UHGV virus genome: UHGV-0375936
Length of the DNA stretch: 64,000 bases
Strand: one strand, 5' to 3'
DNA from: a virus
The notes below the pieces were generated by a model that did not search any database, had not been told where the DNA came from, and saw only the letters and a program-made list of their open reading frames with translations. Of the stretch, positions 19,296-63,122 are shown one piece after another. Position 1 is the stretch's first letter; each line of letters opens with the position of its first letter. The translations under genes and the position numbers were made by a program.

Positions 19296-19373
19296 GTTCT
19301 CCTAAAATGGTTTTCGTTAAGTGAGAGCTTTTGTACTCTCACCTAAGTAATATATATCTGAAATTATTTTTAA
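19296..19373 (-). promoter_or_regulatory. conserved AT-rich box plus 5' hairpin element (copy 1)
   Basis: Near-identical to 55955..56027; minus strand reads TTTCAGATATATATTACTTAGG then hairpin GTGAGAG-TACAAAAGC-CTCTCAC then RBS and ATG. Confidence 0.45.
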
Positions 19374-47721: not shown

Positions 47722-47786
47722 TATCTTAAATCCTTAAAATGAAAGTTAAAGAAATATCGGGGGAGGTTACCCCCCCCCCGAATCAA

Positions 47787-48353
47787 TTACTCTTTAGGCG
47801 CTGGTGCGGTGAAGCCATCCAGTTCACCTTCCAAACCGCTCAGTGCTACTTTCTCAAGAGCTGGAGGGGTAACTTTATACGTCGCAACAGTACCTGGCAG
47901 GAACTTCAAGTGGCCAGCCACAACCGTTACCACGTAAATGGTTTTGCCTTCTTCTTCACGAGAGATAGTTTGCAGGTCGTTTTCACCGAACTCGTCATCG
48001 GTGTACCCTTTCTCAGCCATGGCTGCGTTAACTTTCGCCAGGATTTTCGTCGGTGAATCGAAATCGGTAGTAGGTGCAGTTACTTCAACTTCACCAACGA
48101 TGTCGCAGGAAAGACGAGTATAGTGGAATTCTTTCTCGCCTTTGAAGTTCTGGCTTTCTGCCTTGGCGGTCAGAGTAATTTTAGTGTTGCGGCCAGCTTC
48201 TCCGGTGAACTCAGCGACAGCACTAAAATTAACATCATTTACAGTCAGCTTAGAAGCAGTTTGGTTGTTTTTAGCAATTACAATCTCGATAAGCTGCTGT
48301 TGAAAAGTTTTAGCCATTGTTTTTACCTCGTAAGTAGTATGGGTGGTTTGCAT
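47787..48353 (-). CDS. putative virion protein, paralog family B
   Basis: Paralog of 47191..47721. Confidence 0.5.
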   Translation of the reverse strand: MQTTHTTYEVKTMAKTFQQQLIEIVIAKNNQTASKLTVNDVNFSAVAEFTGEAGRNTKITLTAKAESQNFKGEKEFHYTRLSCDIVGEVEVTAPTTDFDSPTKILAKVNAAMAEKGYTDDEFGENDLQTISREEEGKTIYVVTVVAGHLKFLPGTVATYKVTPPALEKVALSGLEGELDGFTAPAPKE

Positions 48354-48457
48354 AGTATTGTTCGGATTATAGAAGTGTTGTTAATAGTTATGACAGACAG
48401 CAGTAAGGGTTGTCTGTAAAATTATTATTTTTTAACTTTTTATAGAAGGGTGAAAAC

Positions 48458-48940
48458 ATGCTAAAACGTTTTCTACTTGTTGTAACTGCAGCACTTTCGT
48501 TGGCAAGCTGTGCCCTACAACCCACCGCTAACGGTCAATTCTCGACTGTACCCGTAGAGCCACACGACATGGTTATTTACACCTGTATGGGTGTAGAGCA
48601 AGATTTTGTAAATTATAAACCTGTCGTCAATTCGACTAACCTAATGTTAGGCTCAGTAACTGTAATCGATACTGGTGCTAACTGGGTAGCCACCTGGCCA
48701 AATGGTAAGATTGAGTCACCCCAACTTTATAAAGATCTATTAGGTAAAGTTAATGGAAATATCGATCCTATCACGGGACAACGTTACTACCGTGTAAATG
48801 GGTTACTTTCAAAAACACCAACATTTGCGTATTCTACTTTAGAATATAAAACGGGTGATGGTAAAGGCATTACTTTCTTCCACTGTAAAGAAGGTGTAGC
48901 GTCTGACACTGGAACAATGCTCCATCCTGCGGAACAATAA
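48458..48940 (+). CDS. lipoprotein (moron-like)
   Basis: Signal peptide ending in lipobox-like LSLASC; lone plus-strand gene with its own terminator. Confidence 0.6.
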   Translation: MLKRFLLVVTAALSLASCALQPTANGQFSTVPVEPHDMVIYTCMGVEQDFVNYKPVVNSTNLMLGSVTVIDTGANWVATWPNGKIESPQLYKDLLGKVNGNIDPITGQRYYRVNGLLSKTPTFAYSTLEYKTGDGKGITFFHCKEGVASDTGTMLHPAEQ

Positions 48941-48944
48941 AAAC

Positions 48945-48980
48945 TACCCTACTCCTTAACGGGAGTAGGGTATAGTCATT
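48945..48980 (+). terminator. Rho-independent terminator
   Basis: TACCCTACTCC-TTAACG-GGAGTAGGGTA hairpin right after the lipoprotein stop. Confidence 0.6.
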
Positions 48981-49055
48981 TTAACCGCCAAATCGTGCGT
49001 AGAACGCATTCTAAGCGCCTTTATACAAAATAAGGTATAAACGCCTTAGAAATAA

Positions 49056-49571
49056 TTAAATCTCGACTAAGGCGCTCCAATCGATTGGTTTTTGCTTAAC
49101 AACCTTCACAGTACCTCGATTTGGTGACCAGAAAGTAATGTTAGGCTGGTTACGAACGTCAATGTGCAACCAACTGATGTCACATTCAATAAAGTGAATG
49201 AACGGAAACTCGTCAGGGTTAGCAGCGATATAGTCGTGAACCTGTTTTACGGTGCTATCCAACAACGTTGCGTCAATGGCGTTACCGAATTTGTGTTGAC
49301 TTCCTGAATCGGCGTAAAGCTGCAACGCACGTTGTTTATAACTACCGCCCTTAGGCTTTTCTTGATTAATAAAGAAATCTAAGGTTCTTAGTCCACGTTG
49401 TTGTGCGGCAGTTGAGTTAATCACCATTCTACCGAAACGGTTACGAATCTGTTGTAGGGAGATCATTAACAACGGATTCATAAACCGAATTGCAGAATCG
49501 CCGTATTTGGCAATATAGGACTGTGGTACTAACTCTCTGAGTTTAAAGTTACTCGGATTTGGATGAAACAT
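49056..49571 (-). CDS. peptidase M15-like (VanY/L-Ala-D-Glu peptidase type) protein
   Basis: SQHKFGNAIDA fits SxHxxGxAxD; later WLHID His motif. Confidence 0.55.
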   Translation of the reverse strand: MFHPNPSNFKLRELVPQSYIAKYGDSAIRFMNPLLMISLQQIRNRFGRMVINSTAAQQRGLRTLDFFINQEKPKGGSYKQRALQLYADSGSQHKFGNAIDATLLDSTVKQVHDYIAANPDEFPFIHFIECDISWLHIDVRNQPNITFWSPNRGTVKVVKQKPIDWSALVEI

Positions 49572-50223: not shown

Positions 50224-50330
50224 CTTCCCTTATAGAAACCAGAAAAATTCGTATCCACGCTTTTCGTCTTTACGTTTCCGCCCAGACGTTAACGCTTTCC
50301 ACAATAGTGCTAAGAGTTTAGCAAACCAGT

Positions 50331-50921
50331 TCATTTTACTAACCCCGCCTTCACTACATAATCCGGCATTTCCCTGAACACACGTGCATACCAACCGTAA
50401 GCGAATTTTTCATTCTTCTTACGCTTTTCGGAGATTTCTGTGTAGTAAGTTACCTGGTGTGAGATTAACGCAAAGATTAAAATGCCTAATCCCTCGCCTT
50501 TACGGTAATTCAGATAAGCATTCAGAGCACCTAGCGTTTTAGGCCCCATACCGCCGTCGGTGTCAATATCTGCGTAAAGTTTCCCTTCGTTATTTAAAAC
50601 GTTGAGAATACGTTGTAACGATTTCACACAGTTAACACGGCCAGAGTTAATAGCAAAATCAAACATCCGGTCGGCGAGTATCGGCGAGATAGCGAAAATC
50701 TCATCGAGTTTAAGTTTCTTCCACCAACCACGATCGTAAATGTCAAACGCTTGCGCACGGGTCAGATCTTTCATTCTTCCTTTGTACCCGTATTCGCGTG
50801 CAGTTGTCAGTGTTACCCCGTGACAGGTTTCCCCACCTTTATCGTCAGGGTCGTTCACGTACCCACCCTCTAAATCTGTTTTTGATTCAATAATACCTTC
50901 TTTAGTCCAACGTTCGGCCAT
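50331..50921 (-). CDS. endolysin-like GH108 lysozyme with peptidoglycan-binding region
   Basis: N-terminal EGGYVNDPDDKGGETCHGVT typical of GH108; C-terminal region consistent with a PG-binding module. Confidence 0.7.
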   Translation of the reverse strand: MAERWTKEGIIESKTDLEGGYVNDPDDKGGETCHGVTLTTAREYGYKGRMKDLTRAQAFDIYDRGWWKKLKLDEIFAISPILADRMFDFAINSGRVNCVKSLQRILNVLNNEGKLYADIDTDGGMGPKTLGALNAYLNYRKGEGLGILIFALISHQVTYYTEISEKRKKNEKFAYGWYARVFREMPDYVVKAGLVK

Positions 50922-51470: not shown

Positions 51471-52319
51471 TTAATCTAAGAATCCCGGTAAGACCGAATT
51501 AGTCTTGGCTAATTCAATCTTCGACTTCGGACGATCGGTTCCGTTAAAGTGGATTAACAGATTACCGGTCAGGTTAGCACACATACCGCTTAGGGCGAGT
51601 ACCAGCACACGTGTGTACTTCGCATTTGCACCTTCGAAACCTGCGGTAGGGCCATCGTAGATAACCTTAGCACCGTAGAGGTTATTAGCAACGTTCTTAG
51701 GTACGCTTACCCATTTCTCATCAACGACGTTGACCAGTTTAGTGGCTAACTCAGCCATGTCGACAGTGTCGTTGATGGTAATCGGATCGAGGTAATCTTT
51801 TTCTGCGGTGAAGTCAATTGGATAAGAATAAACCGCAGCATTACCTTTCTTAGTGGACGGATACTCTACCAGGTTTTCTAATTGAGTAACAGGTAACAGT
51901 TTAGCCAGATCAATAGGATCGCGTAGCGTGAGTGTCACCTCGCCACACCACTCGTAGGATTTCTCGTTAGCGGTAAGCTGATGGGATTCACCTTCAACTT
52001 TCGCATCAACGATATCCGACGGTAGAATATTTAAATCGTATTTTGCGTTAATCGCATTAAGCAAATCTGCGGCGGTTACAACACCGTCGTTACCGAATAC
52101 CAACTCACCTGTTAGGTATTCGGGCAAATTACGACGATGGTAAGTCACGGTTAAAGTAGTAGACTCATCGCCTTTGAGTTTAGAAGTCAGAACCACCTGG
52201 GTATCAACCCCAGTACCAGTAGGTTCGCCGATATCAACATCACTGAAAGTCAATGGCGGAACAATATTGTTTTCAGTGTTGATGAGTTTTAGCAGTTTCT
52301 GTTTTGACGTAAGAGACAT
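51471..52319 (-). CDS. putative virion protein, paralog family B
   Basis: LTVTYHRRNLPEYL and DLLNAINAKYDLN related to neighbours. Confidence 0.45.
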   Translation of the reverse strand: MSLTSKQKLLKLINTENNIVPPLTFSDVDIGEPTGTGVDTQVVLTSKLKGDESTTLTVTYHRRNLPEYLTGELVFGNDGVVTAADLLNAINAKYDLNILPSDIVDAKVEGESHQLTANEKSYEWCGEVTLTLRDPIDLAKLLPVTQLENLVEYPSTKKGNAAVYSYPIDFTAEKDYLDPITINDTVDMAELATKLVNVVDEKWVSVPKNVANNLYGAKVIYDGPTAGFEGANAKYTRVLVLALSGMCANLTGNLLIHFNGTDRPKSKIELAKTNSVLPGFLD

Positions 52320-55954: not shown

Positions 55955-56027
55955 TCTCCTAAAATGGTTCGTTAAGTGAGAGCTTTTGTACTCTCACCTA
56001 GGTAATATATATCTGAAATTATTTTTA
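55955..56027 (-). promoter_or_regulatory. conserved AT-rich box plus 5' hairpin element (copy 2)
   Basis: Near-identical to 19296..19373 over about 75 bp, including RBS, hairpin and TTTCAGATATATATTACCTAGG. Confidence 0.45.
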
Positions 56028-57597: not shown

Positions 57598-58113
57598 TTA
57601 CCCCCGGTGCAAGAAAATACGGTTAGTGTTTTCGAATTTCGGTTCTGTCCACTCCAGTTCCCAGTAAGCCTGGTTAATATCGCGAGACGTAAGTTTCAAA
57701 TTCGAAACGCCGGGGATATCGATCTGCTGCAGTAAATTAATAATCGTCACCAGCTCTTTACGAGGACGGTTCCAGATAACTTCAAGATATTCCTTTAGGC
57801 GTTCTGGGTAAGCGACAGGACGAATATAAACTAACCCAGAAGGATACTCAATTGCTGAGGGCGTTCTTGGCACTAACCAAACCCAGTCTTTTAATAGCGG
57901 TCCTGAGTGGTAGTTAGAGAGTTGAGTAAGCGCGTTTGCGACCGAACAACAACGGAAGTAGGTGATATCCCAATCGTGTTCATGGCAATTTCGCGCAACG
58001 ATAACTTTTAAACGGTCAATAGGTTTACCGTCGATGGTCGTAACACCAGGTTGATTCGCCAGAATCTGACGTTCACGTTTAGTATAAAGATTCATGTTAA
58101 TATTTACTGACAT
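57598..58113 (-). CDS. hypothetical protein
   Basis: 171-aa ORF; conserved initiation context; G10 tract just upstream. Confidence 0.5.
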   Translation of the reverse strand: MSVNINMNLYTKRERQILANQPGVTTIDGKPIDRLKVIVARNCHEHDWDITYFRCCSVANALTQLSNYHSGPLLKDWVWLVPRTPSAIEYPSGLVYIRPVAYPERLKEYLEVIWNRPRKELVTIINLLQQIDIPGVSNLKLTSRDINQAYWELEWTEPKFENTNRIFLHRG

Positions 58114-60339: not shown

Positions 60340-60381
60340 GTGAACGTAAATTTCACTCTCTCCTAGGTAATATATATCTGA
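60340..60381 (-). promoter_or_regulatory. conserved AT-rich box plus hairpin element (variant copy)
   Basis: Minus strand TTCTCAGATATATATTACCTAGG followed by hairpin GAGTGAA/TTCACTC. Confidence 0.4.
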
Positions 60382-63068: not shown

Positions 63069-63122
63069 GTATGTTTACCTCCTACGGTTGGGGGTCATAA
63101 AATATTGACTAAAAAACATTCA

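Follow-up and report, generated by a model that had tools for sequence, protein, structure and literature searches.

What does a lone lipoprotein gene do in the middle of an opposite-strand block of a jumbo phage, and did it arrive there as cargo? How nucleus-forming jumbo phages lyse cells, control superinfection and persist ranks among the most poorly understood aspects of their biology, and a recent review of these phages mentions neither holins, spanins nor superinfection. The gene in question (48458..48940, plus strand) lies in a stretch of 64,000 nucleotides of the UHGV virus genome UHGV-0375936, the whole of which is referred to here as the window. A sequence-only reading had described it as a lipoprotein gene with its own terminator, labeled it a moron and suggested superinfection exclusion. 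From its sequence and that of its relatives, the gene is best read as a core syntenic gene of virulent nucleus-forming jumbo phages, vertically conserved and not a recent acquisition. Very probably, it is a conserved autonomous gene, likely to be late and strongly expressed, and its product is an outer-membrane lipoprotein, sorted by Lol, whose periplasmic barrel holds a disulfide bond. It stands as a compact, conserved and highly expressed candidate for a function in lysis, superinfection or persistence within the Salmonella/E. coli/Erwinia branch.

The gene encodes 160 amino acids (the stop codon TAA is counted within the coordinates) and follows a Shine-Dalgarno-like AAGGG (48446..48450, plus strand), seen directly in the sequence 7 nucleotides 5' of the ATG. 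The protein begins MLKRFLLVVTAALSLASC-ALQPTANGQ. Its predicted signal peptide (residues 1 to 17; 48458..48508, plus strand) has an n-region with the basic residues K3 and R4, an uncharged hydrophobic core (LLVVTAALS) and the L15-A-S of a lipobox, completed by Cys18 (codon 48509..48511, plus strand), the predicted lipid-attachment site and residue 1 of the mature protein, with Ala at position +2. As a criterion, we used our own regular-expression version of PROSITE PS51257, that is, [LVI][ASTVI][GAS]C with the Cys at positions 15 to 35, a positively charged n-region and an uncharged hydrophobic core. It matched the window protein at Cys18 as well as 20 of 21 family members, and Cys18 was invariant in all 21, so that the lipobox-like signal claimed by the sequence-only reading was borne out and is kept across the family. 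The protein also gave weak matches to the lipoprotein signal models LPAM_1, PG1828 and TrwH, and no second hydrophobic segment was found in its sequence. When every possible start in all six frames was tested, this was the sole credible lipobox open reading frame (ORF) of the 64-kb window. In Enterobacterales, for which the Lol sorting rule is established, residue +2 decides the destination of a lipoprotein. This residue is A, T, S or V across the 21 family members and never Asp, and the Ala of the window protein would allow transfer by Lol to the outer membrane's inner leaflet.

Beyond Cys18, the mature region (48512..48937, plus strand) seems to consist of a flexible tether (about residues 19 to 27) followed by a β-barrel domain that holds C43, C143 and the segment ESPQLYKDLLGK (residues 86 to 97). 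An AlphaFold2 model based on 17 sequences (predicted local distance difference test, 82.8; predicted template modeling score, 0.71) showed a signal helix, a low-confidence stretch at the tether, a β-barrel from residue 28 to 145 and a disordered tail. The prediction is thus of a periplasmic β-barrel domain of about 125 residues, in which the two invariant cysteines, C43 and C143, are predicted to form a disulfide. No specific structural relative of the predicted barrel was found, and sequence searches of Pfam, NCBIfam, PADLOC and the PDB gave matches at the signal-peptide level only.

The protein matched PHROG 9559 (phrog_9559; E value of 2e-65), to which no function is assigned there. By tblastn, homologues were found in 55 phage records, belonging to SPN3US-like Salmonella, E. 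coli and Proteus phages or to Erwinia jumbo phages (including Asesino, phiEaH2, Wellington, Machina, ChrisDB and Caitlin), and more weakly in the E. coli phage Goslar. When 1.84 billion cluster representatives were searched exhaustively with a profile, only 14 proteins came up, of which two were scrambled or partial. Judging from these searches, PHROG 9559 is a tiny family that appears confined to Seoul-like, Erwinia and Goslar-like nucleus-forming jumbo phages (chimalliviruses). Its true homologues, at 31 to 71% identity, include SPN3US gp159, Goslar gp88 (HOV27_gp088, YP_009820773.1) and the UniProt entries called "Lipoprotein" of Erwinia phages Huxley and Kwan, which share the lipobox, the cysteines and the locus and carry no assigned function. 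The family was therefore already catalogued as PHROG 9559 and UniProt "Lipoprotein," uncharacterized, and the window supplies one more member.

Conservation was evaluated in an alignment of 21 sequences reaching down to 28% identity, in which C18, C43, C143, G73, R109, Y111, S126, G133 and G135 were invariant and the lipobox L15 nearly so. Nonsynonymous differences (pN, 0.09 to 0.35) were far below synonymous ones (pS, 0.64 to 0.81), which indicates strong purifying selection; synonymous sites were saturated in most pairs, and the sole unsaturated pair gave a dN/dS ratio of 0.06. Cluster size, tried as a proxy for diversifying selection, was uninformative, the clusters being split at 90% identity. 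Together, the PHROG match, the 55 records, the excess of pS over pN and the peptides detected in Goslar (see below) show that the gene is real.

The DNA of the window had no close match among deposited phages, the best being a 416-bp stretch, 75% identical, of the Salmonella phages STsAS and SPAsTU. Identical copies of the protein are nevertheless carried on contigs of about 220 to 226 kb in isolate assemblies of Salmonella enterica and Shigella sonnei, and a sister cluster at 71% identity takes in E. coli assemblies too; the neighboring genes show the same. Near-complete contigs of a chimallivirus-like phage of about 225 kb were seen in isolate assemblies of many S. enterica serovars, Shigella sonnei, Shigella flexneri and E. 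coli. This occurrence matches the "persistent virulent phage" phenomenon reported elsewhere, in which Seoul-like and Goslar-like chimalliviruses predominate (bioRxiv 10.1101/2024.12.31.630880).

Between 47191 and 63670, all ORFs of at least 110 amino acids lie on the minus strand except the lipoprotein gene, and plus-strand genes are found left of 47127; the sequence-only reading was thus right to call it a lone plus-strand gene among opposite-strand neighbors. The moron label, on the other hand, did not survive the comparison with relatives. In every one examined (SPN3US, as gp159, STsAS, Asesino, phiEaH2, Wellington, Machina, ChrisDB and metagenomic relatives), the gene occupies the same position in the same orientation, and no close relative was found to lack it between the same flanks. 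The group consists of virulent nucleus-forming jumbo phages and not of prophages. The window, the metagenomic relatives, SPN3US, STsAS, Asesino, phiEaH2 and Wellington share a block made up of one or more DUF7941 genes, the lone opposite-strand lipoprotein gene and a convergent cluster. This cluster comprises a DUF1353 gene, an ORF of 34 to 44 amino acids and an endolysin with GH108 and PG_binding_3 domains, to which the Salmonella lineage adds a gene that we call M15-like and that was found in no Erwinia phage locus examined. In Machina and ChrisDB, the endolysin cluster is on the opposite side of the DUF7941 genes, and among the latter the lipoprotein gene remains the only one on the plus strand. 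In Goslar, it comes after tail-fiber and fiber-assembly genes on the same strand and before a DUF7941-glycosidase gene, with no endolysin or DUF1353 homologue within 5 kb. The universal neighbor is therefore DUF7941, not the endolysin. DUF7941 proteins are peripheral-baseplate filament proteins for which a role in host recognition has been proposed, not shown, and that of the window at 51471..52319 matches phiKZ gp127, whose structure is solved.

Upstream of the gene, TATGAC (48389..48394, plus strand) is a predicted promoter for the phage non-virion RNA polymerase, of late or middle class, with G48392 as the predicted start. In phiKZ, this polymerase recognizes TATG as its late promoter; the G is +1, and all positions are required (PMC4666361). 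The promoter motifs in 201phi2-1 parallel the phiKZ ones (PMC11512511). Within the intergenic DNA of the window, TATGAC was found 4 times versus 1.2 expected, which is no meaningful enrichment, so the case for a promoter rests on cross-phage conservation. The hexamer was invariant 39 to 66 nucleotides 5' of the lipoprotein start codon in 9 of 9 loci, and the spacers between the divergent lipoprotein and DUF7941 genes (120 to 140 nucleotides) were not alignable between genera. In Goslar, TATGG lies inside a 44-nucleotide spacer. On the opposite strand, a TATG (CATA on the plus strand; 48351..48354, minus strand) is predicted to serve the divergent DUF7941 gene (47787..48317) as its late promoter, and such a motif is kept about 35 nucleotides before the DUF7941 start in all nine loci. 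This conserved TATG accounts for an over-extended ORF call of 188 amino acids (47787..48353, minus strand), the ATG of which (48353..48351) is the promoter motif itself; the corrected start is at 48317 (176 amino acids, with a GAGG ribosome-binding site), as in the metagenomic copies. The same evidence that mends the start of the neighboring gene thus adds comparative support for a phiKZ-type TATG late promoter in Seoul-like phages.

At the predicted 5' end of the mRNA, the window has a strong stem-loop of 9 bp (48393..48417, plus strand; folding free energy [dG], −12.2 kcal/mol; z-score in the window, −4.8). A hairpin starting at or within 3 nucleotides of the G of TATGAC can be formed in all nine loci, with stem sequences that differ, but in several relatives it is weak. 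The structure may serve to stabilize the mRNA or be part of the promoter. The best sigma-70-like match upstream scored 9 of 12, and such matches were no commoner in the region than in shuffled sequence (8 versus 6.9 ± 2.6). An AT-rich element of early-promoter type, GATATATATTAC, occurs in three copies elsewhere in the window, none of them upstream of the lipoprotein gene.

Five bases past the stop codon begins a hairpin (48945..48972) with a 12-bp GC-rich stem (dG, −25.8 kcal/mol; z-score, −5.9); none of 200 shuffles folded as well. The T-tract that follows it on the plus strand is weak and offset (TAGTCATTTT), whereas on the minus strand the same hairpin runs directly into GTTTTTATTG. We therefore read it as the bidirectional terminator of a convergent pair, shared with the minus-strand genes on the lysis side and not private to the lipoprotein gene. 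All nine relatives have a hairpin of −20 to −28 kcal/mol right after the stop codon, in most cases with a good T-tract. The strong hairpin terminator noticed earlier is real and conserved, though shared. The combination of a promoter and a terminator that is expected of a moron is present in all relatives as TATGAC and the post-stop hairpin, the predicted promoter being of phage late type. We infer from this layout that the gene probably forms an autonomous unit of the middle or late class that depends on the non-virion RNA polymerase.

The GC content of the gene (41.4%) was normal for the genes of the window (44.1% ± 3.0%), while that at third codon positions (GC3) was low (31.7% versus 43.9% ± 3.8%). 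The low GC3 resembled a signal of foreign origin, but the deviation was found in some relatives only and was reversed in Goslar; the overall GC of the gene follows that of each phage, from 41% to 55%. Across genera, the lipoprotein had diverged (43 to 58% identity) to an extent similar to that of its neighbors, the endolysin (52 to 63%) and the DUF1353 protein (54 to 62%), which is consistent with a long residence.

A different pattern emerged in the comparison with the closest lineage, represented by three loci carried in Salmonella isolates (L011 to L013). Compared with these, the lysis block was 91 to 97% identical at the protein level and 83 to 98% at the DNA level, whereas the lipoprotein was only 71% identical, DUF7941b 58%, a DUF4376 protein 68% and a 190-amino-acid protein 52%. 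The change-over in identity falls at the convergent terminator. In the region of about 45.8 to 49.05 kb, compared with L011, a mosaic boundary was seen at this terminator: to its right, the lysis genes and the next DUF7941 genes are 79 to 98% identical in DNA, while the lipoprotein, DUF7941b, DUF4376 and 190-amino-acid genes are 48 to 80% identical. The synonymous sites of the lipoprotein gene were saturated relative to the closest lineage (pS of 0.78), and the gene is therefore an old allele gained by recombination rather than the product of rapid change in place. Allele exchange of this kind is typical of host-range and exclusion cassettes.

Proteomic data are available for the Goslar homologue. 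In CsCl-purified Goslar virions, gp088 was detected by mass spectrometry with 20 peptides (77.8% coverage) at an estimated 737 copies (491 to 1158) per virion, which placed it among the ten or so most abundant Goslar proteins there. The same preparation contained PhuZ (171 copies) and chimallin (126 copies), both known contaminants, gp088 being 4 to 6 times higher; it demonstrably carried non-virion assemblies. The Goslar study counted gp88 among the abundant unmodeled virion-associated proteins without a clearly predicted function and did not mention the lipoprotein signal, and the protein is absent from the cryo-electron microscopy (cryo-EM) model. Among the Goslar peptides listed (A to E part), none had the mature N-terminus (ATLEGLPNLDK), an absence that would be in line with lipidation. 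The coverage of 78% fits a loss of residues 1 to 31, and another combination of peptides also gives 130 covered residues. For SPN3US, a virion spectral-count table lists gp155, gp160 and gp167 and not gp159, and gp160, the neighboring DUF7941 protein, is abundant in it; literature searches on SPN3US yielded nothing relevant on the lipoprotein, a spanin or gp159. We infer that Goslar gp88 is a highly expressed late protein present on co-purifying outer-membrane material or bound after lysis, and we read the signal as co-purified because an exported lipoprotein cannot enter particles assembled in the cytoplasm. Recasting gp88 as an exported lipoprotein changes how the Goslar virion proteome is read.

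As for function, our preferred guess, which we put forward tentatively, is that the protein, as an outer-membrane lipoprotein made late and in abundance, acts in exclusion or masking at the envelope. The non-virion RNA polymerase would transcribe the gene in middle or late infection from G48392, the 5' stem-loop would stabilize the mRNA, and the lipoprotein would accumulate to a high level, which fits the high abundance of Goslar gp88. Infected cells, debris and possibly daughter cells in persistent infections would then stop taking up or inactivating phage, through a Llp/Cor-like or Spackle-like exclusion at the envelope carried out by an unrelated protein. Exclusion becomes the leading guess, by analogy, from the host-recognition neighborhood (the gene adjoins DUF7941 baseplate-fiber genes), the position in Goslar directly after the tail-fiber genes, the allele exchange and the high copy number. 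If it is true, it would bear on cocktail design, phage therapy and biocontrol with SPN3US-like phages.

Several points weigh against exclusion. Llp, Cor and other exclusion proteins showed no similarity to the window protein in sequence, nor any specific similarity in fold. Expression is predicted to be of a late or middle class, but T5 llp and exclusion genes like it are early-acting. Phages of Salmonella and Erwinia have the segment ESPQLYKDLLGK in nearly the same form, which argues for a conserved target, not a variable receptor. The flagella have been reported as the receptor of SPN3US (PMC11428620), and a lipoprotein that faces the periplasm would be unable to mask a flagellar filament. 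In addition, the endolysin cluster is 0.1 to 3 kb from the gene in all non-Goslar genomes examined, a context that a lysis role fits about equally, and gp88 could be so abundant in preparations of Goslar virions because it is truly associated with them.

The comparison with the known receptor-blocking lipoproteins is likewise mixed. Llp of T5 and BF23 and Cor of phi80, N15 and T1 are also outer-membrane lipoproteins of virulent or lytic-phase phages, and they too are encoded by a small separate unit beside host-recognition structural genes, with alleles exchanged together with host-range regions. T5 llp is oriented opposite to the receptor-binding-protein gene. However, Llp has about 60 amino acids, whereas the mature window protein has 142 and a predicted β-barrel; the promoter predicted here is of a late type and not early; and PHROG 9559 is conserved across phages of several host genera. 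Work on BF23 and T5, with Mondigler et al. 2006 among the titles, reportedly placed the gene for a receptor-blocking lipoprotein beside that for the receptor-binding protein. What is new in the present case is the core syntenic status of the gene in the enterobacterial chimallivirus branch, its architecture of TATGAC, 5' hairpin and terminator, the allele exchange and the recognition of Goslar gp88 as a lipoprotein.

A bolder form of exclusion, and a long shot, is that the lipoprotein lets Seoul-like and Goslar-like jumbo phages persist in growing populations by blocking the entry of siblings, through a mechanism unrelated to that of Llp/Cor. Synthesis in bulk would come late, and the lipoprotein would stay in the outer membrane of infected cells, in debris and possibly in uninfected daughters. 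If true, this would explain together the confinement of the family to the chimallivirus clades that prevail in surveys of persistent virulent phages, the hundreds of copies found with Goslar virions and the swapping of alleles.

Among the alternatives to exclusion, a lysis-associated outer-membrane factor is the one that fares best, as a possible if doubtful explanation. In a spanin-like role, the lipoprotein would weaken or remodel the outer membrane or the connections of this membrane to peptidoglycan; alternatively, it would time lysis or lysis inhibition. In the window and in SPN3US, STsAS, Asesino, phiEaH2, Wellington, Machina and ChrisDB, the genes for the GH108 endolysin, the small peptide and the DUF1353 protein either converge on the lipoprotein gene or lie no more than 3 kb from it. 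The promoter motif is of a late type, no spanin-like pair and no other lipobox ORF was visible in the window, and o-spanins (the Rz1 family) and unimolecular spanins are likewise outer-membrane lipoproteins of phages of Gram-negative hosts. However, neither an i-spanin partner (there is no neighboring plus-strand gene and no adjacent or embedded type II membrane protein) nor a C-terminal transmembrane segment was found, and the short, proline-rich, unstructured periplasmic part of o-spanins contrasts with the globular, disulfide-bonded barrel predicted here (6% proline in the mature protein). Besides, the gene is unlinked to an endolysin in Goslar, its alleles recombine independently of the near-identical lysis block, and the conserved peptide gene beside the endolysin is itself a candidate for a membrane-disrupting factor.

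We consider it rather improbable that the protein is a MliC/PliC-like periplasmic inhibitor of peptidoglycan hydrolases, which would neutralize the muralytic enzymes of superinfecting virions (giving protection from lysis from without in the manner of T4 Spackle) or restrain the phage's own enzymes. A weak match in BFVD was to an RB49 protein annotated as an LprI-like lysozyme inhibitor. E. coli MliC has the same overall layout, in which a lipobox and a linker (about 20 residues) precede a Y-x-C strand and there is a Cys at the C-terminal end, and the gene is convergent with that of the M15-like hydrolase (this label is our own reading), a homologue of the virion-associated SPN3US gp158. Membership of the MliC/PliC family was nevertheless not supported, as none of the 21 members matched PF09864 even at an E value of 10. 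The hhalign alignment with MliC (probability of 43%) covers only the signal peptide and the linker up to the Y-x-C strand, stopping short of the barrel and leaving the SGA.Y and W.KG inhibitor loops unaligned. Compared with MliC/PliC, the barrel of the window protein is about 40 residues larger, and the M15-like neighbor is missing from Erwinia phages that keep the lipoprotein. The resemblance to MliC is only a lead.

Poorer still are the chances of a genuine virion-associated protein, which would decorate or cap DUF7941 and tail fibers after lysis or ride on membrane fragments bound to the virion. The excess of gp088 over PhuZ and chimallin and the divergent pairing of the gene with abundant DUF7941 fiber genes are in its favor; set against them are the barrier of export to joining particles that assemble in the cytoplasm, the fact that gp88 was not modeled in the Goslar cryo-EM structure, the absence of gp159 from the SPN3US spectral counts and the non-virion assemblies in the same Goslar preparation. 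The last alternative is a moron of the classical kind or, like Bor or TraT, a host-fitness factor, which a host promoter would drive while the phage is carried and which would benefit the bacterium. It would be in keeping with the autonomous architecture, the low GC3 and the presence of the phage as whole-genome contigs in numerous isolate assemblies of Salmonella, Shigella and E. coli, but it is very unlikely in virulent nucleus-forming phages that show no presence/absence polymorphism of the gene and no consistent GC3 deviation, in which the conserved upstream element is a phage TATG and not a sigma-70-like match, and with a protein for which no homology to Bor or TraT was found.

The surroundings of the gene provided some further observations. 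The small ORF of the convergent cluster (50230..50334, minus strand) lies between the GH108 endolysin and DUF1353 genes and encodes 34 amino acids (MNWFAKLLALLWKALTSGRKRKDEKRGYEFFWFL). ORFs of 34 to 44 amino acids fill the same slot in L011, SPN3US (where it is unannotated), Asesino, phiEaH2, Wellington, Machina and ChrisDB, and in the Seoul and Erskine group they read as an amphipathic helix plus a cationic tail. The peptide is a candidate for a holin- or disruptin-like role in lysis; no holin or spanin is annotated in these phages. The M15-like gene (49056..49571, minus strand) encodes a 171-amino-acid protein that matches the endolysin PHROG 894 and gave no significant match in Pfam, NCBIfam and PDB sequence searches; its homologue SPN3US gp158 is reportedly a minor virion protein associated with the tail. 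Two more hairpins (48995..49050) separate the stop codon of this gene from the shared terminator, and a loosely similar CGT..GTAACGC element is found in the same place in SPN3US and STsAS; an Rfam search of the flanks found no RNA family.

Elsewhere in the window, runs of about 10 G or C, a length prone to slippage, occur in intergenic hairpin- or terminator-like elements at about 47757 to 47781, upstream of 57598..58113 and at about 63100 to 63115. The exact copies of GATATATATTAC are at 19347 to 19358, 56002 to 56013 and 60367 to 60378, all on the minus strand and upstream of minus-strand genes. Each belongs to a more extended conserved element, TTTCAGATATATATTACYTAGG, after which comes a GAGAGT...ACTCTC hairpin, and by sequence these elements look like early promoters of a phage virion RNA polymerase.

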